Origin: Escherichia phage ESCO13 | Strand: one strand, 5' to 3' | Sequence record: NC_047770.1 | Length of the DNA stretch: 64,000 nt | Part shown: positions 9,244 to 44,241 of the stretch, piece by piece | Position numbering within the stretch: the stretch's first letter is position 1 | How the letters are laid out: every line of letters starts with the position of its first letter | Notes under the pieces: model-generated | Database searches by the model: none | Seen by the model: only the letters and a program-made list of their open reading frames with translations | What the model was told of the DNA's origin: nothing | Program-made: the position numbers and the translations under genes

Positions 9244-11232
9244 TTGTTAGAAATTAACGCCTCCAGAATTAGTAACGTGGTTACGTTTAAGGTGGACAAG
9301 AACAGTCTCAAGGAAGCAAAAGATGCCGTGTTGAGTGTTCAGAAGTTTGCAAATAAAATGCAACCCACTATGAACATGACCAAGTTTAGACAACAAATGA
9401 AAGAGATTGAGCGTGAACTTAAGAAAGCTCAAACTCAAAGTCAAAAACCTATGCGAGCACCTACTCCCGCCGGAGCGGGTGCTCCTGTAGGAGGATCTGG
9501 TAGACCTAGAACTCCTAAAACCCCGCAAGGAAGAGAAGAAGAAAAAGCTCGTAAAGCTGCTGAACGCGAAGCTAAAGCAGCAGCACGTAGGGAAGATTTA
9601 GGTAATCTTCGTTTGCAGAACTTTAACTACAGAGCAAGAGCATTTAGTAAAGCCAGTCCTGGCGCTATGCAAGAAGCTAGGGACGTTATGGGTAAAGCTG
9701 TAGAGCAATACAAAAAGGGTGAAATAACTCTTCAACGTATGAACCAAGCTCTTGCTCACCAGTTGGATGCTTTACGCAGATCTCATCGTGAAAAGAATGC
9801 TGAAATAGAAGACGAGGTTCGCGGTCGTCGCCGTATTCGTAGAGAGCTAGAAGCAGAAGCTAAAATGCGTATACGTATGCGAAATCGTGAACTTAGAGAT
9901 ATAGAACGCAACCGTAAGCGTGAATTAGCTCAACAAAAACGTGATCGTGATCGTAGATACGGACAATTAAAAGAAGGTGCAGCAGGTCTTAATCCACGCA
10001 TGATTGCATCCTCTTTGATAGGTGCTGGGCTGTTTGCAGGTGGTTCTGTAGTTGGTAACACGTTGATGAATACTAACGAAAGAATTAAACTTGTAAGTCG
10101 TGGTGCTGAAAACGTTCAGACAAACGCCAACGCTATTTTGGCAATGACAGCTTGGGGTGAACAGAACGGTGTAGACTCTGCAAATATTATTAAATCAATA
10201 GATAATATTAAAGACGTTCGTGAACGTCTTGGTAATACTGTTTTAGCTGCAAAGTGGAATGAGAAAGAAGGGAAGTGGAAAGGCGGTGATAATGGCATAA
10301 CTGACATTATGAACTTGTTCGGATGGAATCCAGAACAGCTTAAACCTTTACAGAACGATCCTTTAGCTTTTATTCAGGCTACTGTTAATGAAGGTGAGCG
10401 TCGAGGTATGAACTCTGCTCAAATCGGGCGACTTCTTGAAAACCTTGGTGATGACCTTATGCACTACCAACGTATGTTTAGTAAAAACGGCGAAGGGTAT
10501 AATGAAGTATTGAAAATGCTTCAAAGAACAGGTGCAACATTAACTCAAGAACAAATAGATGCTTCTAAAGAGTTTACTCGTTTTGCTGCAACAGTTCAGC
10601 TTGTAGGTCAAGGTATGCAGAACCACTTCTTAGAGGGTTTTGTGAAAGCCTTACCTAAAGATGATTCTTGGTTGGATAACGTTAAAGTGCTAGATCAGTT
10701 TGCCAAAGATTTAGGTGAAGAACTCGGTAAGACAACAGTTCAATTAGGAGGTTTTGCTAAAGAATTAGGAGATGGCTTCGGATCTTTTACCAATTGGCTT
10801 AAAGAAACATTCCCAGATACATTCGGAGACAACACAGATCCTAATAAATCTATGGCACAAAAAGCATACGAGGCAACGCAAAGTGGAGACAGCAATCCTG
10901 TAGCAGATTGGTTGTACAATTTAACAGGTATTGATACACAAGACATTGGTCGTATGTGGAGAGGAGAACAAACAAGGACACGTGCTTTTGGATTTGGTAA
11001 TCCTCTTGAAGATTTACGTGAATCAGCCTATACACCTAACGTAAGTTTGGCTCGTAATCAACCTGTTGTTGAGAATACGGTAGCAATACCAAGTGATCTT
11101 ATCAAAGTTACGATCAGCCCTTCTTCAGAGTTTGGAAATATTCTTGATGCAAGAATTCAAAATAGCGGAAATAGCATTTTCCAACGTTTGTCTCTTTCAA
11201 CTCTAAGTGGACAATCTAACACTGGTGGTTAA
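9244..11232 (+). CDS. Tail tape measure protein (TTG start)
   Basis: 662 aa; largest ORF after the chaperone pair; Arg/Lys/Glu-rich helical N-terminal region. Confidence 0.65.
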   Translation: MLEINASRISNVVTFKVDKNSLKEAKDAVLSVQKFANKMQPTMNMTKFRQQMKEIERELKKAQTQSQKPMRAPTPAGAGAPVGGSGRPRTPKTPQGREEEKARKAAEREAKAAARREDLGNLRLQNFNYRARAFSKASPGAMQEARDVMGKAVEQYKKGEITLQRMNQALAHQLDALRRSHREKNAEIEDEVRGRRRIRRELEAEAKMRIRMRNRELRDIERNRKRELAQQKRDRDRRYGQLKEGAAGLNPRMIASSLIGAGLFAGGSVVGNTLMNTNERIKLVSRGAENVQTNANAILAMTAWGEQNGVDSANIIKSIDNIKDVRERLGNTVLAAKWNEKEGKWKGGDNGITDIMNLFGWNPEQLKPLQNDPLAFIQATVNEGERRGMNSAQIGRLLENLGDDLMHYQRMFSKNGEGYNEVLKMLQRTGATLTQEQIDASKEFTRFAATVQLVGQGMQNHFLEGFVKALPKDDSWLDNVKVLDQFAKDLGEELGKTTVQLGGFAKELGDGFGSFTNWLKETFPDTFGDNTDPNKSMAQKAYEATQSGDSNPVADWLYNLTGIDTQDIGRMWRGEQTRTRAFGFGNPLEDLRESAYTPNVSLARNQPVVENTVAIPSDLIKVTISPSSEFGNILDARIQNSGNSIFQRLSLSTLSGQSNTGG

Positions 11233-13496: not shown

Positions 13497-14230
13497 TGGA
13501 TGCATTGAATTTTGTCACAGCAATGCGCGGATTAATGACAGAACAATTAGCAGAAGTCCATACAGCCCTGCCAGTCCGTGTGACTGGCGTTAATTATGGT
13601 GCTAAAACTGTCACTTTAGAATCTATTGTTAAAAACACACGATCTAGTGAAGATGAAATAGATTATCCTACTTTTGAAGATGTTCCTTTTATGGTTAATG
13701 GGGGTGGGACAGGAAGAATCTCATTCCCTATTAAAGCTGGCGATTTAGGAACTGTTATATTTTCTGAAAGAGATCCTTCTAATGCACTGCAAACTAGTGG
13801 AGAAACCTCTTCATCATCCACTTTTATGCAGCCTTGTGGATTATACCCTATTTGTTTTATTCCCAAAATAGCTACAGGAACAGATTCAACAGAAGCCGTA
13901 GATTCTGAAAAGGTAGTTATTTCTAATAACAAAAACACGTACGCTTCTTTCGACCCTACAGGTAATATTTCAATATGGAATAGTCAAGGGATGAAAATAG
14001 ATATTACTACCTCCGGTATTACTATTACAGATGGCACAGGGACTTTGGATCTAAAAGGTGGTAATTTAACTTTCAAAGGCGGCGTGGCAGATATCAATGG
14101 TCTTAAAATAGATCAGAACGGTTTGATGACAGATGGTAATGGCATCGGATTCCATACTCACACGCACACGGTTCGTAACATTCAGAGCGGTAACTCAAGT
14201 GCCGAGTCCTTAAAACCAACAGGAGCCTAA
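13496..14230 (+). CDS. Baseplate spike protein, gpV/gp5-like
   Basis: 244 aa; N-terminal OB-like region (LPVRVTGV...GRISFPIKAGDLGTVIFSERD); Gly/Thr-rich beta region; C-terminal GFHTHTHTV His cluster consistent with a metal-binding spike apex. Confidence 0.5.
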   Translation: MDALNFVTAMRGLMTEQLAEVHTALPVRVTGVNYGAKTVTLESIVKNTRSSEDEIDYPTFEDVPFMVNGGGTGRISFPIKAGDLGTVIFSERDPSNALQTSGETSSSSTFMQPCGLYPICFIPKIATGTDSTEAVDSEKVVISNNKNTYASFDPTGNISIWNSQGMKIDITTSGITITDGTGTLDLKGGNLTFKGGVADINGLKIDQNGLMTDGNGIGFHTHTHTVRNIQSGNSSAESLKPTGA

Positions 14231-14231
14231 C

Positions 14232-14858
14232 ATGGGAATCCCTTTTGACTTAAAACTTGGGCCAAACAACGACCTCATCATGGATGATGGGGATTTGGTC
14301 CTCACTACAACCAGAACAGAAATTGCAGCACAAACTCTTGGGATAACTCTGAACACGTATCGTGGGGAGTGGTTTTTAAATACTAACTTCGGTGTTCCTT
14401 ACTTACAAGAGATTATTGGTGTTGCTAGAAAGAAAGATATTGTAGACAGAATATTTTTAGCAGAGATTGCCAAAAACGTTTACATAGATACAATAAACAG
14501 TTATAAATCTGCTTATGACATGGATCAACGTTATTACTCAATGACAGTTATGGTCACAGTTGGAGCAGATACAGTAACATCTATATTCAATACTCAACCT
14601 TCTGAAGAGTTTATTTACCCTGAAGCTGGTGAAGACAATGCAGCGATCACTTGTGAAGCTTACAGTATTGTTGAGAATTCGAATAGACTTTATCGCTTTA
14701 TCAACTTTGTTGGTTTGCCACGTGATACCTACTCTACTTGGTGGAATGAATGGTCTACAGAGTCAGCAGTGGAAAGAATCATGGTTAACGAAAAAGGTGA
14801 TGCATTAGCTACAAACAATAATTTCGGTATAACAGCTATGACAGGAGTAGAAGAGTAA
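14232..14858 (+). CDS. Baseplate wedge protein, gp25/GPW/XkdS-like
   Basis: N-terminal DLVLTTTRTEIAAQTLGITLNTYRGEWFLNTNFGVPYLQ resembles the gp25/W-family core; follows the spike gene. Confidence 0.45.
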   Translation: MGIPFDLKLGPNNDLIMDDGDLVLTTTRTEIAAQTLGITLNTYRGEWFLNTNFGVPYLQEIIGVARKKDIVDRIFLAEIAKNVYIDTINSYKSAYDMDQRYYSMTVMVTVGADTVTSIFNTQPSEEFIYPEAGEDNAAITCEAYSIVENSNRLYRFINFVGLPRDTYSTWWNEWSTESAVERIMVNEKGDALATNNNFGITAMTGVEE

Positions 14859-15331
14859 TGGCAGATTTAACTACGATCAAAGTTTCTGATCTTACACAAA
14901 CAACCTCTGTGTCTGATACAGATTTCTTTGTAACAGATCAGGCTGGAATAACAAAGAAAACTTCTTTGAAAGTGCTGTTGAGTGGTGCAGGGGTAACTAG
15001 AAACCGTCTGAATGCACGGGGAACAGTAACTAGCACCCTGGCATTAGATATTAGTTCGGCAGAATATTTTTCAGCAACTTTATCTTCTGCAACGTGCACA
15101 ATTAGTTTTACTAATATTCCAGTAGCAACAAATGCAGTTTTAAACTTTACTTTAGCTTTGCGTCAAGGAAGTGGTGCAAATAAAGTCGTATGGCCTTCTT
15201 CTGTAAAATGGAGTTTTGGTCGTTCCCCAGTTTTGAGTTATCGTCAAGGTGCAACAGACACTTTTGAGTTTATCAGTTATGATAATGGAGCAACTTGGAC
15301 AGGTAGCTTAGTTTTAGCAGGAGTTATTTAA
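14858..15331 (+). CDS. Hypothetical baseplate protein
   Basis: 157 aa; start overlaps upstream stop. Confidence 0.4.
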   Translation: MADLTTIKVSDLTQTTSVSDTDFFVTDQAGITKKTSLKVLLSGAGVTRNRLNARGTVTSTLALDISSAEYFSATLSSATCTISFTNIPVATNAVLNFTLALRQGSGANKVVWPSSVKWSFGRSPVLSYRQGATDTFEFISYDNGATWTGSLVLAGVI

Positions 15332-27733: not shown

Positions 27734-29758
27734 ATGAATTTAACAAGACCTAATAGTGCGATAGCCGATCTGGTAGAAGCTACTTATCGAAAACGTCGCA
27801 GCTTTGAGGCAGGTTTTACATTACGTAATTCCCGTGAAGTTTTGCTGTTAGCAGCAGAAGGGAATTATTACCAATGGAAAGGAACTTTTCCTAAAGTAGT
27901 TCCAGCAAACTCTACGCCAGCCACCACAGGTGGTATTTCTTCCCTTGCATGGCAAAATGTTGGGACCGCTGATGATATAGCAATTATCAATGCCAAGTTT
28001 ACGGCAGTGCAACAACAGATTAATGATTTGTCAGAAGCAATACCTGAAGCTGGTAAATCGGCTTATCAGATCGCACTTGATAATGGTTTTGTTGGAACAG
28101 AAGCCCAGTGGCTTGCTTCTTTGAAAGGAGATACTGGTGCTCAACTTAATATTAAGGGATCATTAGCAAGCACTAGTGAACTACCATCTACAGGTAACAT
28201 CGCAGGAGATGGTTATATCGTAGGTGATGTGATTTACGCTTGGGATGGTTCTGTTTGGAAACTTATTTCTTCTCTTGGACCAGAAGGGAAATCAGCTTAT
28301 GAGGTATGGTTGGCAGATGGTAATACAGGATCTGTTTATGACTTTCTTACCTCTATAAAAGGTGATAAAGGTGATGTTGGTCCTACAGGGCCACAGGGAG
28401 CACCTGGTGTTAACGCCAACGGTTTTGATTATCGTGGGGATTTACCTTCTACAAGTAACTTACCACAACCTAACTCTGAAAACGTAAGCCAAGCTTATTC
28501 TATCAATGGTAATCTTTATGTCTCTAATGGGACAGCTTGGGTCAACATGGGTAATATTGTTGGTCCTCAAGGTCCACAAGGTGAGGCAGGTAAAGACGGT
28601 CTTGATGGAACAGATGGAGATGAAGGGAAATCTGCATATCAAAGTTGGCTGGATGCTGGTAATGAAGGGACAGAAGTAGATTTTATTGCCTCACTTAAAG
28701 GTCCAAAAGGAGACAAGGGTGATCAAGGAGAGCGAGGTCCACAAGGTGAACTAGGTCCACAAGGACCAGTGGGTGCAACAGGATCAGGCTTAGAGATTAT
28801 CGGGGTTCTGAACAGTGAAGCTGAACTTCCTCCTACTGGAGAAGTAGGTGACGCATATAAAATTAATAATGATTTATATGTTTGGGTCCAAGATGCTACG
28901 GAATGGATGAATGTTGGCAGTCTTGGAGGAACATCAATTACAGCTAAAGGTCATGTTCCGAACAGTGAAGCTCTCCCTGTTTACAATAACTATGGTGATG
29001 CTTACTTAACTGAAGACACTAGTAATCTTTACATCTATACCTACGATCAAGACACCAATTCCGCATCTTTTGTTGACATGGGAAGTATTAAAGGCGACAA
29101 AGGTGAAAAAGGGGATAAAGGAGATAAGGGTGATCCTGGAACAAACGGAACCAACGGTACTGATGGGACCAACGGTAAGGATGGCGCACAGTGGTTTGTA
29201 GCAACAACTAATCCAGTCACAGGAGACGGTGTTATCAATGATTACGCCTTCAATACTACCACTGGAGCAGTGTTTAAGAAAACAGATTCTTCTACGTGGA
29301 CGCTTATAGGCACTCTTCCTAGTATACCAGAAGCCCCTCAAGACGGCTTGACGTATGGTCGGTCTGATGGAAACTGGATCGAAATATCAGGATCAGATCC
29401 TACGGAAGCTATAACACCAACTAGAGTTACAGCAGGTTTCATGGAACTTGAAACAACTACTGCCAACTCTGGAGCATCTTGGACTCCTTCTGGAACTTCC
29501 AATATGTATGTTGTTACAGTAACTGATGCTCTGACAGTTGGAGCATGGCCTGGTGTCACTGGCTCTACAAAACCTAAAGCATTTTCAGCAATGATTTATT
29601 TGATTCAAGATACAACGGGACACACGGTTACACTAGATGCGTCTTATGGAGCACTAAATGATACAGAAATAGCAACTACTGCTAACGCAGTAACAATTTT
29701 GCAATTAACGTATCCTGGTGTGGGTGATATCGTGGACATGGTTGTTGTAACACGATAA
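27734..29758 (+). CDS. Collagen-like repeat tail fibre
   Basis: 674 aa; several Gly-X-Y runs (GDKGDVGPTGPQGAPG; GPQGPQGEAGKDGLDGTDGDEG; GPKGDKGDQGERGPQGELGPQGPVGATG; KGDKGEKGDKGDKGDPGTNGTNGTDGTNGKDG) and three copies of a GKSAY..WL..GN.G...DF..S.KG module. Confidence 0.7.
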   Translation: MNLTRPNSAIADLVEATYRKRRSFEAGFTLRNSREVLLLAAEGNYYQWKGTFPKVVPANSTPATTGGISSLAWQNVGTADDIAIINAKFTAVQQQINDLSEAIPEAGKSAYQIALDNGFVGTEAQWLASLKGDTGAQLNIKGSLASTSELPSTGNIAGDGYIVGDVIYAWDGSVWKLISSLGPEGKSAYEVWLADGNTGSVYDFLTSIKGDKGDVGPTGPQGAPGVNANGFDYRGDLPSTSNLPQPNSENVSQAYSINGNLYVSNGTAWVNMGNIVGPQGPQGEAGKDGLDGTDGDEGKSAYQSWLDAGNEGTEVDFIASLKGPKGDKGDQGERGPQGELGPQGPVGATGSGLEIIGVLNSEAELPPTGEVGDAYKINNDLYVWVQDATEWMNVGSLGGTSITAKGHVPNSEALPVYNNYGDAYLTEDTSNLYIYTYDQDTNSASFVDMGSIKGDKGEKGDKGDKGDPGTNGTNGTDGTNGKDGAQWFVATTNPVTGDGVINDYAFNTTTGAVFKKTDSSTWTLIGTLPSIPEAPQDGLTYGRSDGNWIEISGSDPTEAITPTRVTAGFMELETTTANSGASWTPSGTSNMYVVTVTDALTVGAWPGVTGSTKPKAFSAMIYLIQDTTGHTVTLDASYGALNDTEIATTANAVTILQLTYPGVGDIVDMVVVTR

Positions 29759-32475: not shown

Positions 32476-32480
32476 TAAAA

Positions 32481-32510
32481 AAGGGAACCCGCAAAGGTTC
32501 CCTTTTCTTT
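32481..32510. terminator. Bidirectional rho-independent terminator at the strand switch
   Basis: 9-bp stem AAGGGAACC/GGTTCCCTT flanked by an A run upstream and a T run downstream, between convergent genes ending at 32475 (+) and 32539 (-). Confidence 0.6.
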
Positions 32511-32538
32511 TATAAAAACTCTTTATAAATCAATAAGA

Positions 32539-33426
32539 TCAGAACGGAATATCATCATCGAAGTCCATTGGAGGTTCTTCTTGATTGCTTGGAGTTGGTT
32601 CTGGTTGTGGTTCAGGTTTCTTAACTTCTTTCTTCTCTTCTTTCTTAGGTTGTTCTGCGGAACCACGAATGGCAGCAGCAACTTTATCAGACAGAGCTAG
32701 AACTTTACGAGCAGAGTCAATCAGATCTTCTACAGATACAGTCTTAATGGTATGGTCTTTACAAGCATTGAGAATAGCGTGACCAACAGATGCCCCAAGA
32801 TCATAATCATTAATATCAACGCCACGAGATTCAGCAATTTCCGATTTCAGCGTGACAGTTGCAGATTGAACAACCCCAGCGATATCGAAAGCATCACCTT
32901 TAACACCATTACGAATCAGTTCCAGTGCACCATTTACTGCGTGACCAGTTTCCAGACCTACAGTATCACGTTTTTTATAGGACTGCTTAGGAGCAGCATC
33001 GTTGGAACCTTTATTGCCAGAAGATTTGTTAGACTTCTGAACACCATCGGTAGACAATACTGTAATACGAGATTTTTTAGTATTGTAGTAAGTTTTACCG
33101 CCTTTATTATCAACGCGATCAATATCAATACTTACTTCTACACCTTTTTCAATAGTGATCCAATTATCACCTTCTTTGACTTGCAGGTTTTCATAACCTT
33201 CTTTCAGTTCAATGTCACCAAGAGAAATCCAAACACCTTTCTCATCTGGTTTAGCACCTTTCTCTTTCAGAACAAGAGAGGCTCGGTGAGTTGAAACAAT
33301 CGTTTTTCCTTCCCAATGAAAAGTTTTAGGTTCAGCGAATTTATCCAGTTTAACGTAGTCTACGATACCAGTTGCATAAGTTACGGTTTTGCCTTTACGA
33401 TCAGTTTCAGTATTAATTACGGACAT
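32539..33426 (-). CDS. Single-stranded DNA-binding protein (phage-type, bacterial SSB-like C-terminal tail)
   Basis: 295 aa; C-terminus PQPEPTPSNQEEPPMDFDDDIPF is identical in its tip to the E. coli SSB tail; first gene of the reverse-strand replication block. Confidence 0.5.
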   Translation of the reverse strand: MSVINTETDRKGKTVTYATGIVDYVKLDKFAEPKTFHWEGKTIVSTHRASLVLKEKGAKPDEKGVWISLGDIELKEGYENLQVKEGDNWITIEKGVEVSIDIDRVDNKGGKTYYNTKKSRITVLSTDGVQKSNKSSGNKGSNDAAPKQSYKKRDTVGLETGHAVNGALELIRNGVKGDAFDIAGVVQSATVTLKSEIAESRGVDINDYDLGASVGHAILNACKDHTIKTVSVEDLIDSARKVLALSDKVAAAIRGSAEQPKKEEKKEVKKPEPQPEPTPSNQEEPPMDFDDDIPF

Positions 33427-33442
33427 TATTATCTCCTCTACA

Positions 33443-33835
33443 TTACATTAATTTTGCACAGAAAGAGCGGAGTCTTTCCATATCATCTTGCTCTAACAGG
33501 TATTTACCTTTACCTATTCCAACTCCAATTTCACCATTAGGAAAATGAACTATTTGCACTGGGAAACCTCCGAGTTTAATTGTGGCAGCTTTGCCTTCTT
33601 CGTCTATAACGTTTCGGATTGTATCTTGCAGTGAAATGAATTCTTTGTTTGTAACAGTGGTTTCAATTATTTCAGATGTTTCGACACGAGCAGTTAGCTT
33701 CTTGTTTCCACCTTGAATAACCAAAATTTGAAAATAAAAAGAGTTGTCAAGACCTACAACATTTTTCTCAACTAGTGTCAAACTGGTGTAGTTTCCATAA
33801 ACAGTTTCAACAGCTATCTTAGAACGTTCAGTCAT
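33443..33835 (-). CDS. Hypothetical protein
   Basis: 130 aa ORF with RBS. Confidence 0.4.
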   Translation of the reverse strand: MTERSKIAVETVYGNYTSLTLVEKNVVGLDNSFYFQILVIQGGNKKLTARVETSEIIETTVTNKEFISLQDTIRNVIDEEGKAATIKLGGFPVQIVHFPNGEIGVGIGKGKYLLEQDDMERLRSFCAKLM

Positions 33836-33880
33836 TGAATGCTATCCTATCATAAAATGTTTAATATTGTCAAGCTTTAA

Positions 33881-34474
33881 TTACCAAGGAATATCATCTT
33901 CTTCCAATCTGGTATCTACTTGAGGTGGACGTGGAACCTTAACCTCTTTCACAAAACGAAGATATGGGAAACGTGTAGCAATTTTAATAACGTGTTTGGC
34001 ATCTTCTCTAACATCTTTGTGCAAGAAGCAGATCCCTGTTTCCAAAGTTGTTTCAAAATCTTTAGAGTAATAACAATCCTTCCCATCAAATGCAGCCTGG
34101 CAGATGGACAGATCAAACTCATTTAGAAAGGTTGTCATTACGCTTGGTTCCATAATCATAAGGTTGCAAAGCTGACCATCACGTTCAAACTCAAAAACGT
34201 GTTTAAGACCAGTAACACCCTCGTAGTTATCCGAAGCTTCTTTGTTTCCTAATTTACGAACATTAGTTCCCATCAAAGCAGATGCAATCAATTCTTGTAT
34301 TTGCTCTTCTGATCGATGTGCAGGAAGAGACGTGTAAAAATCCAGATCACGTCCAGCAATATCAAGAATACGCCAATCACGAACAGCGCCGCCAGCCAAG
34401 ACAGAATTAGGATCAGCAATCTTTAATACGGTAAGAATTTCTTTGGCAATATTGATTTGTTTTGATTTAGTCAT
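33881..34474 (-). CDS. Nucleotidyltransferase-fold protein with SSB-tail-like C-terminus
   Basis: 197 aa; LAGGAVRDWRILDIAGRDLDFY resembles the GGxVRD...DxD nucleotidyltransferase head; C-terminus ends RLEEDDIPW. Confidence 0.35.
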   Translation of the reverse strand: MTKSKQINIAKEILTVLKIADPNSVLAGGAVRDWRILDIAGRDLDFYTSLPAHRSEEQIQELIASALMGTNVRKLGNKEASDNYEGVTGLKHVFEFERDGQLCNLMIMEPSVMTTFLNEFDLSICQAAFDGKDCYYSKDFETTLETGICFLHKDVREDAKHVIKIATRFPYLRFVKEVKVPRPPQVDTRLEEDDIPW

Positions 34475-35102: not shown

Positions 35103-37700
35103 CTAGTGACAGGACGCCCAGGAGTTACCCACATCATATCCGGCAGTAAGCTGAACATTAAGATTGTAAAATTCTCCAGCCTTAGTAACAGCTAAAGCAG
35201 CAAGTTCACCTGCCCGACTATAGGCTGTAAACCATCCACCTTTGGGAGATTCATGAATGTTAGCCCAAATTTGCCCTGTCTCTTTTTCCTTATTATGCTT
35301 CCATTCTTCAACTTTAGCAAGGCATTCTTTATCAATTTTCTTTTGTTCTTCAGGATCGTCTACTTTCTTCCAACCTAATGATTCAGGTGAAAACCATTTG
35401 AATTCTACAAGGTTACGAGAAACTTCAAGCTGGGCTTCATCGTGATATGCAATCATTTGTTGCACGAAGTCTTTATTCTTCCAGTCATCTTTAAAGAAGT
35501 CAACACTTAGCCCTTCTTCTTCGATCATGTCGTCATAAATAACCATTGCACGTTTAGCACAGATAACCCCACCACTTTGGAACAGAGAGTTAAGAATCGC
35601 GTGAGCAGAACGAGTAGGAACCTTACGACCGTCAATACCCAAAACATACTGTTTACCAGTCTTAACCCAGAAATCGTTTAAACGTTCTTTAAGACGCGCC
35701 AGTGGGAATGCAGCTTCCCAGAAAGCATCGAACACCAGTTGCCCTGTGTATTTATCGCTACCAATTGTTTTAGCAACCTTGTCTGCTTGTGCACCATAAG
35801 TGATCCCGTATTTAACAGATTTCGCCGGACTACGTTCAAACTTACGCCCAATAGTATCTGTAATACGTTTTGCCATCATGGTATGAACATCGTTAGGCTT
35901 CTCTAACAAGAGAGCGTTACAGTATTCATGAGGCTCCGGTTCGTAGCGCCAACAATAATGCGACTCAATCTTTGCTTCCAAAGAGTCGAAGTCATAACCG
36001 ATCTGGAAGTATTTAGGAACTTCTACACCAAACAAGTTACGCATCTCCCATCCAAACAAAGATGTGACACGAGGGATATTGGCTACAGACCTATGCTTCA
36101 TACGAGAGGTTGCAGCATCACATGTAGCGGCTGGTGTAGGAATACGCCCATCCGCCCTTACTGCGGCTAAGAAACCTTTATCGTATTCTTGATCTTCTTC
36201 ATCTTCTTCCCAATCAGCACCGCCACCTAAAATAGAGTTCCTACGATGCTTATACGTTAAGTATTCTACAATCTGAGTAGCATAAGGAAATTTCTCACCC
36301 AAAGCTTGCAGGTTAGGACAGATTTCTTTTTCCTGACCTTTGGTAAAACATGGGTTAGTCAATACTTTAAGACCGCGACCTTTACCTTTTGCTATACGCT
36401 CTTGAATCTTCCTTTCCAAGGTTTCCGGTGTGCACTCCAGATGATCACAACGATCCTGACAAAAATTAGAAGATAGAGTTTGCTCAACGTAAGCTCGAAT
36501 ACCTTTCTGAAGTTCTTCCTCGCTCTTTTTAATCTTGGTGCCAGATTTAAGAGTCAAGTCTTTATCTTTATATTCAGACGGTACCCAACCTAATCCTACA
36601 AGCCAGTTTTTAATATGGGTTGTATCGTTCAATGTTGCAGGGATGTTAGGATCACATAGAGGTTCATCTGCTGCAACTGGCAGTTTCCACTCTTTCCCCA
36701 ACATAACTAACCACCAATCGCCATCCCTCTCTTCCAAATGACCATCATGCTTCTTAGCAAAATTGATCATATGGTTAGTTGGCTCTAAGTTCTTTTTAAT
36801 TTGCAACTTAGGTGGAATAAAAGCCTTAAGATAGCCTTTTGTTGCTGGTTTAGGTGGCAAAATAGGCTCAACGAGTAAACGAAGACGCTCCATTTCTGCA
36901 TCCAAAAAAGCAAGGTTCTCTTCTGCTTGCTTCATGTTAAAAGCAAACCCACGGTGTTCCTGGCGTGTGATAATGTCTGCTACACGTTGTTCAAGTTCAA
37001 ATGGACCTTCCCATTTATCATAATCACCCCATTCTTCCATAAGGTAGTTATATACGCTCGTATTGGCTTTGTTGTCATAGATACAGTAATAAAGCATATC
37101 CGCAGCAAAAGTCTTAAATCGATCTTCTTCTGGAATCTCTTTACGGAAATCTATTTTTACATCACCACCTGCTTTTCGAGAAAGTGCTGCCAAGCTATGT
37201 CCTGATTTGCCCTCAATCTTTCGATCTGGGTTTAACACTTTACTCAAAATCAAGGAGTCAATAAGTTTTACCTTATTTTTGCCCCACGTATTATATTTAA
37301 CACTGTAATCTAATCCATAAAACAGTTTTGTAGCCAACCAGTCGTAGTTGATACCGTTGTGAGCCACAGCCATTTCAACCAGATATTCAGGCTTGTCTTT
37401 AAAATAACCTTCATGATTAATAAAGTCTGGGAAATCTTTTAGTTGAAAATGCGTGTAATCTTGCGCCACATACTCTTTAAGAACATATGTGTATTTACCA
37501 TCTGACTCTTCATAAGGACGCCCATCAAAGATGTATTTAGGGCCATCGTGGAAAGCTACTATTTCTCCTGTTTCATGGTTCTCTAAGACAATACAGTGCA
37601 TTTGAAATGTGTCTTTGAGACGATAAGGACTAGCTAAATAATCAATAGTGTCATTATTCAACAATCCGTTTGCTTCAATATCCCATGTAAACTTACTCAC
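35103..37700 (-). CDS. DNA polymerase, family A, with 3'-5' exonuclease domain
   Basis: 865 aa; N-terminal exo motif DIEANG; motif A-like DFDSLEAKI; motif B-like K..YGITYG; motif C MIAYHDE. Confidence 0.85.
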   Translation of the reverse strand: MSKFTWDIEANGLLNNDTIDYLASPYRLKDTFQMHCIVLENHETGEIVAFHDGPKYIFDGRPYEESDGKYTYVLKEYVAQDYTHFQLKDFPDFINHEGYFKDKPEYLVEMAVAHNGINYDWLATKLFYGLDYSVKYNTWGKNKVKLIDSLILSKVLNPDRKIEGKSGHSLAALSRKAGGDVKIDFRKEIPEEDRFKTFAADMLYYCIYDNKANTSVYNYLMEEWGDYDKWEGPFELEQRVADIITRQEHRGFAFNMKQAEENLAFLDAEMERLRLLVEPILPPKPATKGYLKAFIPPKLQIKKNLEPTNHMINFAKKHDGHLEERDGDWWLVMLGKEWKLPVAADEPLCDPNIPATLNDTTHIKNWLVGLGWVPSEYKDKDLTLKSGTKIKKSEEELQKGIRAYVEQTLSSNFCQDRCDHLECTPETLERKIQERIAKGKGRGLKVLTNPCFTKGQEKEICPNLQALGEKFPYATQIVEYLTYKHRRNSILGGGADWEEDEEDQEYDKGFLAAVRADGRIPTPAATCDAATSRMKHRSVANIPRVTSLFGWEMRNLFGVEVPKYFQIGYDFDSLEAKIESHYCWRYEPEPHEYCNALLLEKPNDVHTMMAKRITDTIGRKFERSPAKSVKYGITYGAQADKVAKTIGSDKYTGQLVFDAFWEAAFPLARLKERLNDFWVKTGKQYVLGIDGRKVPTRSAHAILNSLFQSGGVICAKRAMVIYDDMIEEEGLSVDFFKDDWKNKDFVQQMIAYHDEAQLEVSRNLVEFKWFSPESLGWKKVDDPEEQKKIDKECLAKVEEWKHNKEKETGQIWANIHESPKGGWFTAYSRAGELAALAVTKAGEFYNLNVQLTAGYDVGNSWASCH

Positions 37701-38494
37701 TATTCCTCCTTTCTAATGTTCTCCAGAACCCACTGAAGTTCTTTTAAACTTAAACTTCTTACTCCCGCAGTTTTACTAGCTTCAGCTTTAAGTAACGGGT
37801 AAGCCTCAATGATACGCGTTTTAAGATCAGAAGTCAAGGCTTTTAAAAAATAGGTAGATGCTTCAGATAAAGAATCTTCTTCTGATAACACTTTACCTGC
37901 ACTTGCTCCCGCTCTCCTAACGGCTATATCGTAGTCTTTACTGTTACCTAATACGAATAGTCGATTCTCTCCTAAAACAACGGGAGAACGCTTCTCGTTG
38001 CGTTTAATCCATATCTGGAATACACAAGGAACATCCCAAGGTTCTCCATGAAGAATAAAAGATCCTTTTGGACATTCTTCTTCGTAAAGAAGATGCATGT
38101 GGGGATTTAGTTTGTGTGCAAAAAAGATTTTTTGAAATGTGCGAGGCAAGATAAAACAAATACCACCTTCGTTATCCAACATTTCAGCACAATGGTTAAA
38201 GAACTTAATGGCAAGACTAGCATTTTTTCCAAACGGAGGATTACCGACAAAAGCAGTTACACTACCAACAGACTCTACAGATTGAGCTAAAAAATCTGCC
38301 TCAATACAATCTTCAAACTTAGGATCAATATCAAAAGAAGTTATGTTTTTAAAACAAGAAGAGAAAGCTCCTTCTCCCGCAGATGGTTCTACGTAGTTAG
38401 CTTCCTCTCCAAAAATTTCTTTGATCTTATCACATAAGAACCCCGCATAAGCGGGGTTAGTGTAATATTGATCAAGTGTGTTCAACTTGCTCAA
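37700..38494 (-). CDS. SAM-dependent DNA methyltransferase (N6-adenine/N4-cytosine type, NPPF motif)
   Basis: 264 aa; motif I VEPSAGEGAF; motif IV FVGNPPFG; stop overlaps the polymerase start. Confidence 0.6.
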   Translation of the reverse strand: MSKLNTLDQYYTNPAYAGFLCDKIKEIFGEEANYVEPSAGEGAFSSCFKNITSFDIDPKFEDCIEADFLAQSVESVGSVTAFVGNPPFGKNASLAIKFFNHCAEMLDNEGGICFILPRTFQKIFFAHKLNPHMHLLYEEECPKGSFILHGEPWDVPCVFQIWIKRNEKRSPVVLGENRLFVLGNSKDYDIAVRRAGASAGKVLSEEDSLSEASTYFLKALTSDLKTRIIEAYPLLKAEASKTAGVRSLSLKELQWVLENIRKEE

Positions 38495-39013: not shown

Positions 39014-39029
39014 AAGGGCCGAAGCCCTT
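39014..39029 (-). terminator. Hairpin at the 3' end of the primase-helicase gene (terminator candidate)
   Basis: AAGGGC-CGAA-GCCCTT overlapping the stop codon, followed on the minus strand by TTATTAAAAA. Confidence 0.3.
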
Positions 39030-40806
39030 AGTAGTTGCTATCCGTAGGCAAATTAGCAGGATTGTTGAAATACTGCTCTTTGTCATGCAGAGTTGCAGTT
39101 CTAATGTCATAGTAAAACTGCCCTGCCGGACCAGTTTCCGAGAACTCACGGTTTTTTAGGATAAAGCAATGAGTCGTATTGCGTTCTACAGGGTCTTCAG
39201 CGGCTTTATCTCGTTCCAAAGCCAAGGTAATACCAGCACCTTTAGCCAAGAAACTACTACCCATTGCATCGTCCTCTGTTAAGTGTTCATTGCCACCATT
39301 AGCCGATTTCTTAACGTGTGAGATGACGATAATAGTTATAGCATACTCTTTCATGATGCGCTTCAACCATGTTGCTAACTCTTCCTGGGCTTGAACATCC
39401 ATACCAGAAAGCAAATCAGAATAAGGGTCGATAACAAGAATTGTTACTCCAAAATAGATGATCATCTCCAAAACTTTTTCTTTGATAGACTCCACATCTG
39501 CTCCACGATCATCACACACATAAAAACGTGGTGATCCATCTTCTCTTTCGTAAAAATCTAGGATTTTTTCTTTATTCTCTTCCAAGATTTGAAATTTCTC
39601 TTCCGGTGTTTTCCTGTGTAGAGGAATATGCAGGAACGAGGACAACAGGTTACGAGAATACTTCTTATAAGTTGCTTCCAAGGACAGAATGCCTAGGGTA
39701 TGTTCTGGGTGCGCAACAATGATATGTTTGGTGATCTCGTTCACCATCAAAGTTTTACCGATACTGGTCTTTGCCAGGATGACTGTAATCTCTTCCTCTA
39801 CTAAACCACCACCCAGCATATTTGCAGCAACACGCATAAAAGGAGGCAAGGTAATCATCTTGGATTCCAAGCATTCTAATGCAGCTTCATACAAGACATT
39901 AGAAGCATAAACACCTGCTGGGGTGTATAGACGAGCACTCCAAAAAGCTTTTACGAAATCTTTTGCACGACCTTCTTCCAGATATTGATTGGCATCCTTA
40001 AGATCCATCTGCATACGGTAGACTTTGTTACGAGGCAGCACCTTAACAATATTTTCAAATGCCTCATTACCTGCTTTGTCATTATCCATGCAAACAATAA
40101 TCTTCTTAAATTTTTCAAAGAAAGGGTATTGTGCCTGAACTTGTTTATACATACTGGTTTCACCAGTTGTGCCACTTACTACGGCTGGAAGCTCATATTT
40201 ACTGTCCAAGTTTTCAGATAGCATTTGATAAGCTGCCAGAGCATCGTGTTCACCACCTGTAATTACAACAGTATGAGAACGGTCTGCAAAACGAATTTGT
40301 CCAAAAAGATCTACATCTTTACCTACTTGACCAATAGGTTTACTGAAATCTTTAGGATGAATACGACGCTTAAAACCAACCAATTCTTTACCGATGGTAG
40401 TCGGATATAAACAACTTTCTACTACCATCTGATCTCCTTCCTGACGGTATTCATAACGAACACCATAGAAAGATGAAACTTTTTCTTTAATGCCTCGATA
40501 ACCACGTGGGTTGGTTGATGTTTCTTGAACAATTTTACGATGAATCTGTTTATTAAATTCCGAACCCACAATCTCCTCCTCTTCTTCTAAAACTTCACCA
40601 TTTTCTCGTAACCATTCTACGCTAGGAATAGTGTATTCACACGCAAAGCACTTAGCACCTTTATGCTCTCCATTAGAATCTAATCCGTAAACCATCAGGT
40701 TATTACGAGAGCGATCCTTGCCATTTTTCATGCAGCGCGGACAACCTGTATGTCCTTCCTTGCTAAGATCAACATCAAATCCATATTTAGTTATAATGTG
40801 CGACAC
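39028..40806 (-). CDS. DNA primase-helicase (T7 gp4-like)
   Basis: 592 aa; N-terminal Cys4 zinc ribbon (CPRCMKNG...CFACEY); TOPRIM-like region; Walker A ILAKTSIGKT; DnaB-like C-terminal domain. Confidence 0.8.
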   Translation of the reverse strand: MSHIITKYGFDVDLSKEGHTGCPRCMKNGKDRSRNNLMVYGLDSNGEHKGAKCFACEYTIPSVEWLRENGEVLEEEEEIVGSEFNKQIHRKIVQETSTNPRGYRGIKEKVSSFYGVRYEYRQEGDQMVVESCLYPTTIGKELVGFKRRIHPKDFSKPIGQVGKDVDLFGQIRFADRSHTVVITGGEHDALAAYQMLSENLDSKYELPAVVSGTTGETSMYKQVQAQYPFFEKFKKIIVCMDNDKAGNEAFENIVKVLPRNKVYRMQMDLKDANQYLEEGRAKDFVKAFWSARLYTPAGVYASNVLYEAALECLESKMITLPPFMRVAANMLGGGLVEEEITVILAKTSIGKTLMVNEITKHIIVAHPEHTLGILSLEATYKKYSRNLLSSFLHIPLHRKTPEEKFQILEENKEKILDFYEREDGSPRFYVCDDRGADVESIKEKVLEMIIYFGVTILVIDPYSDLLSGMDVQAQEELATWLKRIMKEYAITIIVISHVKKSANGGNEHLTEDDAMGSSFLAKGAGITLALERDKAAEDPVERNTTHCFILKNREFSETGPAGQFYYDIRTATLHDKEQYFNNPANLPTDSNY

Positions 40807-40818
40807 TTTGTTCTCCTG

Positions 40819-41097
40819 TTAAAATGGTTCGTTAGTCTCCATCATATATTCTGCTTCTAGTTCTTCCATGTGCTTTCTAAATTGGAAAGCAATTTCTGCT
40901 ACAGTTACATTTAAATCTTTTTCAAAAACTTCTGTAGATCCTTCATAAAAACGAATACCGTCAATTAAAAGCCCTCCGTGGTAATCCCAATCGCTTTCAC
41001 GAGAAAGTGGATTAGGTTCTTCATAATAGTAATCCACCTCCACGACCAAGGCTTTCCCGTTACGAGTGGTGTATTCAAAATCAAAAGTGTTAATCAT
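40819..41097 (-). CDS. Hypothetical protein
   Basis: 92 aa ORF, coupled to the downstream gene. Confidence 0.4.
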   Translation of the reverse strand: MINTFDFEYTTRNGKALVVEVDYYYEEPNPLSRESDWDYHGGLLIDGIRFYEGSTEVFEKDLNVTVAEIAFQFRKHMEELEAEYMMETNEPF

Positions 41098-42041
41098 TAT
41101 AGCTCCTCAAATAAAAGTCTACGACGCTCATTCAACACATCAATGTGATAATGAGTCCTGACATACTTAGCTAATGCTAATCCTTTCTCCATGCAAACAT
41201 CGGGAGCACTTAATAAGTATTCCGTAATATCTTTCCACTCGGAAGGTGTTTCAGCAAAGAATAACAAATCTTTAAACTCTTGTGTATGATAATTCTCACG
41301 AGGAGAGCAGATTAAAGGTAAACCCTTAGCACCTGCCTCAAGAATTTTAAGATTGCTTTTTGCATTATTAAACACGTTATCGACCAATGGTGCAAGACTG
41401 ATTTGATGACCATCGTAAGATTCCATGTAGTTGGCATATGGTCTTACACCTTCATAAACACTAGTTGGTGCTACATTTTCTCTAATTACAGACCATTCAC
41501 GACTACTTAAAACTTCAGAATCCCTACGAAAACCACATATTGTAAGATCTTTACCAAAATCGGGCAAGATAGCCAAATCTTGTTTATGTGTTTCACTTCC
41601 AGCCCAGACTAATGGAGTTTTGGAGTAGCGATCACGGGTCAACACAAATTGACCTTCATCGTAAGGAAGTCCATTAGGGATTATGTGCACATTATCATTG
41701 TATTGTGAAAGTTCAACTTGCAAAGCAGGTGTCGTAGTTGTAACAAGATCACTGTGCTCTAAAAACCATTTTAAATGTTCACGAATACCTGATTCAAAAA
41801 TACCTTCTAACATGTGTCCTTTTGGAATAACTAAAGAGTCATCCAAATCCATAACCATTTTAAAGCCCAGGTTTTTAAGGGCTAAAAAGCCCTCTTTACC
41901 TTTTGTTGGCACTCCGTTAAAAACGAAAACGTTGTATTTAGGTTGTGAAGAGAACTGCCTTGAGTAAGGCAGCACTACCCTATGGAAATCGCAGACACTA
42001 TAATTGATTCCGTTACGATTGTCAAGAATTATTTGTCCCAT
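41097..42041 (-). CDS. Glycosyltransferase, GT-B-like (paralog 1 of tandem pair)
   Basis: 314 aa; shares with 42049-43035: C(D)FHRVV(L/I)P, DLDD, NxLPxDxGQF, VWAG, LAPLVDNxFNNxKSNLKILEAGAKG, VRTHY. Confidence 0.45.
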   Translation of the reverse strand: MGQIILDNRNGINYSVCDFHRVVLPYSRQFSSQPKYNVFVFNGVPTKGKEGFLALKNLGFKMVMDLDDSLVIPKGHMLEGIFESGIREHLKWFLEHSDLVTTTTPALQVELSQYNDNVHIIPNGLPYDEGQFVLTRDRYSKTPLVWAGSETHKQDLAILPDFGKDLTICGFRRDSEVLSSREWSVIRENVAPTSVYEGVRPYANYMESYDGHQISLAPLVDNVFNNAKSNLKILEAGAKGLPLICSPRENYHTQEFKDLLFFAETPSEWKDITEYLLSAPDVCMEKGLALAKYVRTHYHIDVLNERRRLLFEEL

Positions 42042-42048
42042 ACTTCAC

Positions 42049-43035
42049 CTACAAACTTTCAATAACCTGGCGTCGCAATTCGTTTGCATCTGCCAGATTA
42101 TAATGTGTTCGAACATGTTCCGCTAAGAACAAGCCACGATCTTCCCGATAGTTCGGATTGCGAAGAAGCTTAACAATTTCGTAATGCCATTCTGCTTTAT
42201 TCTCTGCGTAAGCAACAGCGCGAGCATCTACAGGGTTAAAATAAGGTAATATCTTAGAACAAACAATTGGAATACCTTTTGCCCCAGCTTCCAAGATTTT
42301 GAGATTACTTTTACAATTATTAAAATCGTTATCTACCAGAGGAGCTATAGCAATAGCATGACCCTCGTAAACACTCATGTAATTATCTAAATCTTTTACA
42401 GCGGCTTTATATTTAGCATTTGGTAAATTTCTGCGAATCTTAATCCACTCTTGTCCCGTGATGCTCTGTGATGCCTCATATCCCGCAATAGTAAGAAGTT
42501 CATCGTCGAAAGTATTAGAGACTAGTCGTAAGTCGGGTTCGTGACTAGCACCGCCAGCCCATACGACAGGGGTACCGGATGAACGATCATTTGACAAAGT
42601 GAATTGTCCGCTATCAAAAGGAAGTGCATTTCGGATCACAACAACATTCCTATTTAAGTGACGGATCTTATATGCCAAGTATTCCGTAGTCACAATGACC
42701 ACATCAGCAAGCTTAACCATAGCTACAATAGAATGGGTGTTTGACTCGTATAGACTTGCTAAATAATGTTCTGGATTAAGTTGGTAGAAATCATCTAAAT
42801 CTACAACAATCTTAACACCTTGACGTTTCAGGGACAGAACATATTCTGCCCCTTTAGAATGAATACGGTTAAACACGACAACATCTTTCTTAGGCTGAAA
42901 ATTATTGTTGTTAAATGGTATAACAATACGATGATAATCACAACCACTGTGAGGTTTTGCATCAATTTTCAGTTTAGTCCATTTTTTATTTGACATGTGC
43001 CAGTGCCTCCTCATAAGAAATTCGGATTTTCCCAT
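42049..43035 (-). CDS. Glycosyltransferase, GT-B-like (paralog 2; likely start at ATG 42996)
   Basis: Clear paralog of 41097-42041; ATG at about 42996 has RBS GGAGG and removes most of the overlap with the upstream gene. Confidence 0.45.
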   Translation of the reverse strand: MGKSEFLMRRHWHMSNKKWTKLKIDAKPHSGCDYHRIVIPFNNNNFQPKKDVVVFNRIHSKGAEYVLSLKRQGVKIVVDLDDFYQLNPEHYLASLYESNTHSIVAMVKLADVVIVTTEYLAYKIRHLNRNVVVIRNALPFDSGQFTLSNDRSSGTPVVWAGGASHEPDLRLVSNTFDDELLTIAGYEASQSITGQEWIKIRRNLPNAKYKAAVKDLDNYMSVYEGHAIAIAPLVDNDFNNCKSNLKILEAGAKGIPIVCSKILPYFNPVDARAVAYAENKAEWHYEIVKLLRNPNYREDRGLFLAEHVRTHYNLADANELRRQVIESL

Positions 43036-43669
43036 TTTTAATATCTTCTAAAGACGCTTTATATTCTTCCCAGTTAATGCCAATAGCAGCTTCTTTCTCT
43101 TCTTTTGTCAGATTAGCAAAAGGCATAGGATTGTTTCCAAAAACATCGTCTGGGTGGATATAAGCCATGATACGAAGTGGACAAGGTATTGCCTGAATGC
43201 CCTGATTCAAACCAGCAGCTTTCAAACGGTGTACCCATTCAGCATCTTCAAAACCATAGCCGTGAGTGTAAGGGCGGAAATAACCCATCTTCTCAACAAC
43301 GGCACGAGAATACATTGCAAATTGACACATTGCAAGTTCCCAGAGAATAACTTCTCCTTTACTCCCAACAACTTTATCTTTGAAATACTCCGGCATACCA
43401 AAGAAATCCCATCCTCCAGAGACAGCTTGATCTACAAAATATGTTTCCCATCCCTCCATGATTGGGTAGCAATCGTCGTCAAAAATAAACCAATAATCAT
43501 AACCTTCTTCATAAAACTGGTGCATAAGTTCATTCCTGGCGTAAGCTACACCTTTACGATCTGGATCGTTGAATACTCGAAAATCTGCATGTGGATCTGT
43601 TACAAGATAGTCTTTAAGTGGACGGACACCTACAGTGATAACACCCACTCCGATTTTAATATTTTCCAT
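42986..43669 (-). CDS. Glycosyltransferase, GT-A-like (DxD)
   Basis: 227 aa; WFIFDDDCYP (DxD-type) and GYGFEDAEW motifs. Confidence 0.45.
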   Translation of the reverse strand: MENIKIGVGVITVGVRPLKDYLVTDPHADFRVFNDPDRKGVAYARNELMHQFYEEGYDYWFIFDDDCYPIMEGWETYFVDQAVSGGWDFFGMPEYFKDKVVGSKGEVILWELAMCQFAMYSRAVVEKMGYFRPYTHGYGFEDAEWVHRLKAAGLNQGIQAIPCPLRIMAYIHPDDVFGNNPMPFANLTKEEKEAAIGINWEEYKASLEDIKNGKIRISYEEALAHVK

Positions 43670-43677
43670 TTTCTCTC

Positions 43678-44241
43678 CTAGATAGTTTTACTGTGATCGT
43701 GACAGTGTAATAAATGATGTATAGACCGTTGAGGATTTGTTTGACCTAATCTGTAAATGTGAAACAGATACATTCCCCGCATCAATCCTAACCTTTTTCC
43801 TTTTTCATGTAAAGTGCGAGAGAAAATTAGGTCGAATTGGATAGATTTTTCTTCGAAAGGAATTTCATTCCACAATGATTTTCTAAAAAGCAAAAAGAAA
43901 CCTGCCAGAGGTGTTCCGAAAGGAACTTCTTCAACACTCACTTTATGATATTCTCTTGCAATCTTAGCATATTCTATATGGTTTAGAATATTTGGATCAT
44001 CGTTAATTTGGTTAGAGAAAAGCTGATAACCACTACCTAACCTGTTACAAGTTGCACCTATTACATCAAAAGGCGGGTTTGACATAATAAGCTCTTCAAG
44101 CATAGATGGTTGATCAGGCAGGAGGAACATTGTATCGGTATCTCTTAAGCACACCCAACTATCATCTGGAAGAACGGCAATAGCTTCATTGATAGCCTTG
44201 CCGATATTTCCTGTCAGATAGGGAGTAATATAATAAATCAT
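43678..44241 (-). CDS. Putative GT-A-like glycosyltransferase
   Basis: 187 aa; LRDTDTMF DxD-like motif; weak. Confidence 0.3.
   Translation of the reverse strand: MIYYITPYLTGNIGKAINEAIAVLPDDSWVCLRDTDTMFLLPDQPSMLEELIMSNPPFDVIGATCNRLGSGYQLFSNQINDDPNILNHIEYAKIAREYHKVSVEEVPFGTPLAGFFLLFRKSLWNEIPFEEKSIQFDLIFSRTLHEKGKRLGLMRGMYLFHIYRLGQTNPQRSIHHLLHCHDHSKTI

Follow-up and report, generated by a model that had tools for sequence, protein, structure and literature searches.

SSB-type C-terminal tips on an SSB-like protein and a small nucleotidyltransferase in the replication module of a phAPEC8-like Escherichia coli phage

Introduction

[quoted passage not shown] The same peptide is an antibacterial drug target (PMC5872125). 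A stretch of 64,000 nucleotides from Escherichia phage ESCO13 (NC_047770.1), hereafter called the window, raises the question of why a phage should place this label on two of its own proteins at once, and of which partners would read it. The two proteins, of 295 and 197 residues, are encoded close to each other; the first, which is SSB-like, ends with the exact tip of Escherichia coli SSB, and the second, a predicted small nucleotidyltransferase, with a near copy of that tip terminated by Trp.

Two SSB-type tips in one locus

Both open reading frames (ORFs) are present on the minus strand where the first-pass annotation had placed them, namely, at 32539-33426 for the 295-residue protein, whose C-terminus reads ...PSNQEEPPMDFDDDIPF, and at 33881-34474 for the 197-residue protein, which ends in ...RLEEDDIPW. 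The latter had been described as lying two genes away from the former, and a single gene coding for a 130-residue protein (33443-33835) indeed separates them. The host-type tail reported for the larger protein is exact, and the match is longer than the eight residues noted earlier: the tip EPPMDFDDDIPF (32542-32577, minus strand) comprises the same 12 C-terminal residues as E. coli SSB, as found in the SSB chains of the PDB (7f2n, 1eqq).

The 575 open frames of at least 40 residues in the window were scanned for ends made of two acidic residues followed by I-P and then F or W, and two of them, exactly these two proteins, carry such an ending. Based on the amino-acid frequencies of the window itself, 2e-6 such endings are expected by chance per ORF, and 1.3e-3 for the whole window. 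No third ORF with this ending is present in the complete reference genome LR597654.1 (150,152 bp), where position 101944 corresponds to window position 32001. The paired tips are real and beyond chance.

The 2.3 kb around both genes are 99.3% identical to phAPEC8_ev052, and 97 phage records, mostly of Escherichia phages, match this region. The window comes from a myovirus of E. coli that is phAPEC8-like (Phapecoctavirus, Stephanstirmvirinae), in agreement with the weak hint at a proteobacterial host that had been drawn from the IPF-type ending.

A non-canonical SSB-like protein

Is the larger tip carrier an SSB? With regard to its architecture, an AlphaFold2 model that draws on 60 diverse homologs, with a mean predicted local distance difference test score (pLDDT) of 83, comprises an N-terminal all-beta domain at residues 1-125 (33052-33426, minus strand; pLDDT about 85-94), predicted to adopt an oligonucleotide/oligosaccharide-binding (OB) fold, followed by a disordered linker at residues 133-149 and by a four-helix domain at residues 153-253 (32668-32970, minus strand; pLDDT 90-96), with helices at 156-172, 179-201, 208-223 and 232-253. 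The chain after the helical domain is again disordered, and consists of a Pro/Glu/Lys-rich linker at residues 254-283 (32578-32667, minus strand; pLDDT 46-57), hypervariable in the family alignment, and of the tip. The closest structural matches of the N-terminal domain are RPA/SSB OB domains; the OB fold, for which structural modelling had been proposed as a check, is thus predicted with high confidence. The four-helix domain is the best-conserved folded part of the family. It harbours two similar motifs, GxExGHAxNGA and LGASVGHAVLNA, and the near-invariant residues D154, G157, G161, H162, A163, T190, K194, G211, V214, G215 and A217. Its structure matches generic helical bundles only, and it may serve in oligomerisation or partner binding.

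At the sequence level, the protein has no match to the Pfam SSB family (PF00436), and NCBIfam PRK09010 covers only residues 254-295, with 22.8 bits against a cutoff of 260. The PHROG SSB families cover only residues 247-295, the whole protein being assigned to phrog_4477, of 'unknown function', and PDB searches, performed either by phmmer with the single sequence or with a 60-member profile, retrieved nothing but the tails of SSBs and constructs to which this peptide is fused. The designation as a phage SSB in the first-pass annotation therefore stands for the OB fold, the linker and the tip, but not for sequence homology, all SSB-family matches being confined to the tail.

No canonical SSB was detected elsewhere in the reference genome, either by annotation or by tblastn and phmmer with E. 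coli SSB, a search that an SSB conserved in fold only would escape. The sole gene annotated as SSB in this genome is the ortholog of the gene described here. Besides the tail match, the E. coli query gave one weak OB-region match at genome positions 10087-10872, which was rejected as a second SSB, as it corresponds to a goF-like family protein. Because it possesses a predicted OB fold, no canonical SSB was detected and its gene closes the replication module, we class the 295-residue protein as SSB-like but non-canonical, with an OB fold; no better candidate for an SSB was found, and it probably binds single-stranded DNA (ssDNA). It has in common with E. coli SSB the last 12 residues and the layout of OB fold, disordered linker and acidic tip, but differs from it by an OB domain without sequence homology, by the extra conserved four-helix domain and by its length (295 versus 178 residues).

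In larger members of the family (P0070, P0073, P0078, P0082 and others; 370-425 residues), the OB fold is separated from the helical domain by a beta-rich insert of about 70 additional residues, which may form another small barrel and has the consensus KVYGEI.S...GVAVV.DE....V.VVLGE.....V.VGGRL.A..D..G.I.SGFK.YG at alignment columns about 201-300. The rV5-like SSB-like protein (408-416 residues) is annotated as hypothetical only.

Conservation and origin of the SSB-like tail

The tail was compared in 120 clusters of the SSB-like family. All proteins that end at the tip have P294 and F295, and D290 and D292, downstream of the hypervariable linker, are nearly invariant. Of these clusters, 70 have DDDIPF and 56 have DFDDDIPF; the 11-mer PPMDFDDDIPF, identical to that of the host, is found in 27, which include members only about 31-35% identical overall.

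Such a match could be a recent capture from the host ssb gene, an origin that was considered and rejected: only the last 39 nucleotides of the tail DNA align with chromosomal ssb, at 87% identity, and the differences are synonymous, which points to purifying selection on the tail peptide. The ssb genes of plasmids, which code for canonical SSBs, also match the tail DNA.

Which partners would read the tip?

The explanation that we favour as a whole, with about as much doubt as conviction, is that the tip is a portable docking tag, read mainly by host SSB-interacting proteins. Any carrier would occupy the sites, composed of a hydrophobic pocket and a basic rim, that read the SSB C-terminal peptide (SSB-Ct). 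The 295-residue protein would be the phage's own ssDNA-binding protein at the replication fork, built from a divergent OB fold and a family-specific helical domain, and would couple phage ssDNA to SSB-Ct-reading partners. The 197-residue protein would be an active small nucleotidyltransferase, having gained its Trp-ended near copy of the tip in the phAPEC8 lineage, and would be delivered to, or compete at, the same site or sites. Host proteins are favoured as the main readers because the tip stays host-identical across very divergent phages; a phage-internal receptor co-evolving with the tip would leave the sequence free to drift, in the way of the T7 tails (EADEDGDF in gp2.5 and SNDTDF in gp4, as read from the sequences), which are unlike DDDIPF. 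The proposal of the first-pass annotation, that the phage recruits or competes for host partners through the tips, is plausible from the sequences.

Some observations weigh against this explanation, among them insertions at the tip-coding DNA. In some near-identical phages, the stop codon of the SSB-like gene is the exact insertion point of a gene for an HNH homing endonuclease (phrog_2340, E 9e-49). The cassette takes the place of the terminator and lengthens the protein beyond ...DDDIPF by 15 residues, APIGLQYGRNFLHCF (L002:4886-5399; L040:1405-2020), the start codon of the endonuclease falling within this extension. An extension of the type [AS]P[ILV]GLQY... is found in 17 of the 120 family clusters, and the HNH cassette matches 16 phage records, among them Mt1B1_P17, ZCKP1 and nieznany, which are viable phages in culture. 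As viable phages have a buried tip, plaque formation does not depend strictly on a free ...IPF carboxylate. Further, canonical SSB-Ct pockets bind the C-terminal carboxylate, as established by structural work, so that buried tips are evidence against an essential canonical interaction. A receptor encoded by the phage itself may, on our analysis, be an equally serious reading compared with the recruitment of host partners, because relatives carry a tip on their primase/helicase, as T7 does, and because the tip of the HK620 SSB recruits a phage protein.

The comparison with T7 deserves attention in this respect. In that phage, the tails of gp2.5 and gp4 share a docking site, the front basic patch of the polymerase gp5 (PMC12339929). 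As in T7, two proteins of the replication module in the window have an acidic tail with a terminal aromatic residue, and the window codes for a T7-like family-A DNA polymerase (35103-37700, minus strand; DNA_pol_A E 8e-14, phrog_17 E 2e-111). The likeness is closer in the E. coli phage rV5 (Vequintavirinae) and in the L024-L030 clades, where the gp4-type primase/helicase ends in ...GFEDDETPF or ...EDEDCPF and the SSB-like protein in ...FDDDIPF, ...FDDSIPF or ...FEDVPF; rV5-like phages and T7 both tag an SSB or SSB-like protein and a gp4-type primase/helicase. These tips were observed at L041:5099-7177 and 14046-15272 (rV5), at L024:1329-3401 and in L029/L030. Taken together with the tipped nucleotidyltransferases, the tipped primase/helicases indicate that this supergroup repeatedly tags a second protein of the replication module. 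The window differs from T7 in that its tips copy the host DDDIPF, not EDGDF or NDTDF, and in that its second carrier is a nucleotidyltransferase without T7 counterpart.

Phage HK620 provides another point of comparison, as its SSB cannot recruit Sak4, a phage annealase, without the six residues at its end (PMC5928155). This too is a divergent, phage-encoded SSB with six final residues that resemble DDDIPF, but the HK620 tip, NDYPPF, is merely similar to that of the host and its partner is a phage protein, whereas the tip described here is host-identical.

These parallels, together with the polymerase of T7 type and the location of all tagged genes in one replication module, would fit tips that act as internal replisome tags. 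Through them, the SSB-like protein and the second carrier (here the nucleotidyltransferase, in rV5-like phages the primase/helicase) would dock on a protein of the phage, the most plausible ones being the family-A polymerase and the OB or helical domain of the SSB-like protein itself, and the likeness to host SSB would be ancestral or incidental. We regard this reading as possible, though doubtful. The drift that it leads one to expect is at odds with an SSB-like tip that is host-identical over 8-12 residues in members about 31-35% identical, and the gp4-type primase/helicase of the window (39028-40806, minus strand), which ends in ...PTDSNY, bears no SSB-like tip. The family-A polymerase is a candidate phage-side receptor, yet the 12-residue insert that holds the gp5 patch KWKRR 587-591 (K587, K589, R590, R591) is missing from the polymerase of the window and from nine relatives, in which the flanking GxDGRKV...RSxHAxLNxLxQSxG aligns cleanly around the missing insert. 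A receptor site of the T7 type on the polymerase was therefore rejected, its docking patch not being conserved.

Other insertions at the tip-coding DNA

In the window itself, the 'APIGLQY...' extension was considered as a read-through or hidden feature and rejected, as the tip is followed by TGA and then by the terminator, and no frame encodes the extension (window 32479-32541). In one relative (L015:10001-12592), a CapR + T5orf172 (GIY-YIG-type) homing endonuclease is encoded directly after the SSB-like gene and ends in ...DDFANDIDIPEPEDDYDLDVPF, the SSB-like protein having a different tail, ...EEGDEDLDIPF. This tip-bearing protein of 470 residues was not retained as an independent tag carrier, since it represents a CapR/T5orf172 endonuclease with an apparently displaced SSB-like 3' end, and thus another type of mobile element at this site. 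In a metagenomic relative (L010:10001-12129), the SSB-like protein is cut after ...AAIRG, with loss of the linker and tip, and a DNA methyltransferase-like gene (243 residues) and a gene for 143 residues stand where the tail was; this may be a tail-less variant that exists in nature, or an error of the assembly. The HNH, CapR/T5orf172 and methyltransferase insertions make the conserved tip-coding DNA a homing hotspot.

The tipped nucleotidyltransferase

The nucleotidyltransferase fold attributed earlier to the 197-residue neighbour is borne out, with an intact GG...DxD motif. The catalytic motif GGAVRDWRILDIAGRDLD, at residues 28-45 (34340-34393, minus strand), is of the form GGAVRD-x9-DLD and provides the G-G turn and the DxD metal carboxylates; among 60 diverse family members, G28, G29, W34, D43 and D45 are invariant, and R32 and D33 near-invariant. 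The invariance of the catalytic residues in these relatives suggests, as far as sequence can tell, that the tip decorates an active enzyme. The protein matches phrog_10174 (E 3e-63) and phrog_1614, 'nucleotidyltransferase' (E 3e-11). Its match to the PolyA_pol head (PF01743) is faint, with an E of 0.023 and 15.5 bits against a threshold of 23, at profile positions 3-51 only; 30 of the 60 relatives also match this profile weakly, with a best E of 3.9e-5. Using Foldseek, the confidently modelled residues 1-120 were found to resemble TdT, Cid1, TUT7, MenT1, TM1012 and CCA-adding enzymes (probability 0.9-0.99, but E only 0.009-0.06), and model residues 121-197 are poor (pLDDT <50). A profile search of the PDB gave spurious Cas12f and phycobiliprotein matches only, and no CCA enzyme.

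The enzyme shares the GGxxRD...DxD motif and a Pol-beta-like fold with class II CCA enzymes and poly(A) polymerases, MenT toxins and TM1012. It differs from class II CCA enzymes by falling below the Pfam threshold, by its length of about 200 residues, without neck, body or tail, and by its SSB-like tip. Sequence and model together would be best described by a minimal class-II-like, 'head-only' nucleotidyltransferase. An exhaustive profile search retrieved 1,052 clusters (E <= 1e-3) in this family of stand-alone enzymes of about 200 residues. Two further stretches, FDLSICQAAF and EDAKHVIKIATRF, may resemble motifs B and D of class II CCA enzymes, a likeness that was set aside.

A phage-encoded nucleotidyltransferase fold is also predicted in Gad2, a 400-residue anti-Gabija protein of Bacillus phages (bioRxiv 10.1101/2023.05.01.538930). 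Membership of the Gad2 family (PF26128) is not supported, as this profile did not match P0129 at E <= 1, nor any of the 60 family members at E <= 0.1, which sets them apart from Gad2; a precomputed PF26128 label exists for two relatives, and is marked faint on one of them.

The Trp-ended tip and its distribution

The tip RLEEDDIPW (33884-33910, minus strand) stands at the end of a linker of about 20 residues (KEVKVPRPPQVDT...). Of the 12 relatives found by word search, 10 have a P-W ending, which is DDIPW in nine and DDSFPW in the tenth, and some relatives bear fuller copies of SSB-Ct, such as NDFEDDIPW and EDFQDDIPW. In a census of the top 150 of the 1,052 cluster representatives, the ending x-[IT]-P-[FWY] was counted six or seven times, compared with about 0.1 estimated by chance, and D-I-P-W endings occur in three clusters. 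A tipped homolog with 37% identity (P0136) is encoded at the same position within a similar replication module, and the tipless distant relative P0131 lies outside any such module. Syntenic orthologs in L008-L014 lack the tip and end in ...QEFMDEI, ...NEEFKI or ...SPDVFNF, so that the tip of the enzyme is patchily distributed among syntenic orthologs of sister clades.

Could this second tip be a chance or neutral by-product without docking function, on an enzyme that is simply a tRNA or RNA 3'-end nucleotidyltransferase? Databases annotate the protein as 'tRNA nucleotidyl transferase / poly(A) polymerase', a label that is not established, the phage possesses a tRNA cluster, and most family members, as well as several syntenic orthologs, are tipless. 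We nevertheless hold this view to be highly improbable. Besides the expected frequency of 2e-6 per ORF for such an ending, P-W is kept in 10 out of 10 close orthologs despite turnover of the linker, and the tip is met again in P0136, the syntenic homolog of 37% identity, and in a further cluster. Moreover, only the head domain is present, as no match to tRNA-binding neck, body or tail domains was found in the protein by Pfam and family scans.

The terminal residue separates the two carriers: tipped enzymes always end in Trp, and SSB-like proteins always in Phe, which suggests that the two tips are not interchangeable. The fixation of Trp in all tipped orthologs and its recurrence in three clusters, as opposed to Phe in the SSB-like family, would also fit an affinity tuned for a particular pocket, as might be expected if the tips, mainly that of the nucleotidyltransferase and perhaps also that of the abundant SSB-like protein, were decoys or competitors. 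They would then titrate host nucleases and helicases (ExoI, RecJ, RecQ, RecG and others), diverting them from host SSB or from phage DNA and protecting phage ssDNA ends, with the activity of the enzyme being unrelated. The tips are exact or near copies of the host peptide, and gain and loss of the tip among syntenic orthologs is what an accessory host-interaction module would display. We consider such a decoy role unlikely, since it leaves unexplained both the attachment of the tip to an enzyme with invariant catalytic residues and the enrichment of tips within one enzyme family.

A further reading, which we put forward as a rather improbable one, is that the Trp-ended tip guides an active nucleotidyltransferase to an SSB-Ct-reading host repair nuclease or helicase, or to a defence component derived from one, and that the enzyme nucleotidylates this protein or the nucleic-acid end that it holds. 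If true, it would amount to an 'SSB-tail-guided effector', a strategy of host takeover or anti-defence not described before, with a tag that moved between primase/helicase and nucleotidyltransferase within one supergroup.

Significance

Literature searches, including those on SSB-tip mimicry and on an SSB-type tip on a phage nucleotidyltransferase, turned up no study of this protein family. Undescribed in the literature searched are the OB-plus-helical SSB-like family with its letter-perfect host tail, the SSB-type Trp-ended tag on a small nucleotidyltransferase, and the apparent mobility of the tag between primase/helicase and nucleotidyltransferase across sister phage groups. A widespread tipped OB-fold family, accompanied by a tagged primase/helicase or nucleotidyltransferase, would offer a natural setting in which to ask what the label recruits in the course of infection, and could show whether phages hijack or blunt host repair and defence via the tip. 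Ready natural controls are provided by the HNH-buried tip, the replacement of the tail by the methylase cassette and the tipless syntenic enzymes. In addition, the tip offers a first way, through localisation, to approach the function of a family of small phage nucleotidyltransferases with more than 1,000 clusters.

Genomic neighbourhood

The replication module runs leftward, in the order primase/helicase, family-A polymerase, small genes, nucleotidyltransferase, 130-residue protein and, last, SSB-like protein. The conserved 130-residue protein encoded between the two tip carriers (33443-33835, minus strand) belongs to phrog_16560 (E 1e-76) and is syntenic in relatives; no match to it was found in Pfam, NCBIfam or the PDB. 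Upstream of this gene and of the SSB-like gene lies a sigma-70-like promoter match, TTGACA-18-TAGGAT with TG (33844-33873, minus strand), which is a consensus match only, in a region holding fewer matches than shuffles. A hairpin terminator (32479-32506) is common to the SSB-like gene, on the minus strand, and to a convergent tail gene on the plus strand.

The family-A polymerase has 865 residues in the window versus 1077-1253 in some near relatives (L006:5090-8323, L009:5002-8316, L027:3254-7015, L041:7236-10855), and that of rV5 is split by an HNH gene; these features suggest that inteins or endonuclease insertions are common in the replication module. Overlapping the start of the polymerase gene, a 264-residue protein (37700-38494, minus strand), named 'DarB-like anti-restriction' in the reference annotation, matches methyltransferase families weakly (phrog_799 E 1e-10, Eco57I E 0.017).

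Just upstream of the primase/helicase, an ORF of 92 residues (40819-41097, minus strand) ends in ...EAEYMMETNEPF, which is weakly tip-like (acidic residues, then P-F) and may be due to chance. It is followed upstream by a run of genes with seemingly paralogous pairs (41097-44241, minus strand), in which two proteins of 314 and 328 residues both contain ...NLKILEAGAKG[LI]P..., and proteins of 227 and 187 residues come next. Elsewhere in the window, a tail-fibre protein of 674 residues (27734-29758, plus strand) displays collagen-like Gly-X-Y runs, for example GDKGDVGPTGPQGAPG and KGDKGDQGERGPQGELGPQGPVGATG.

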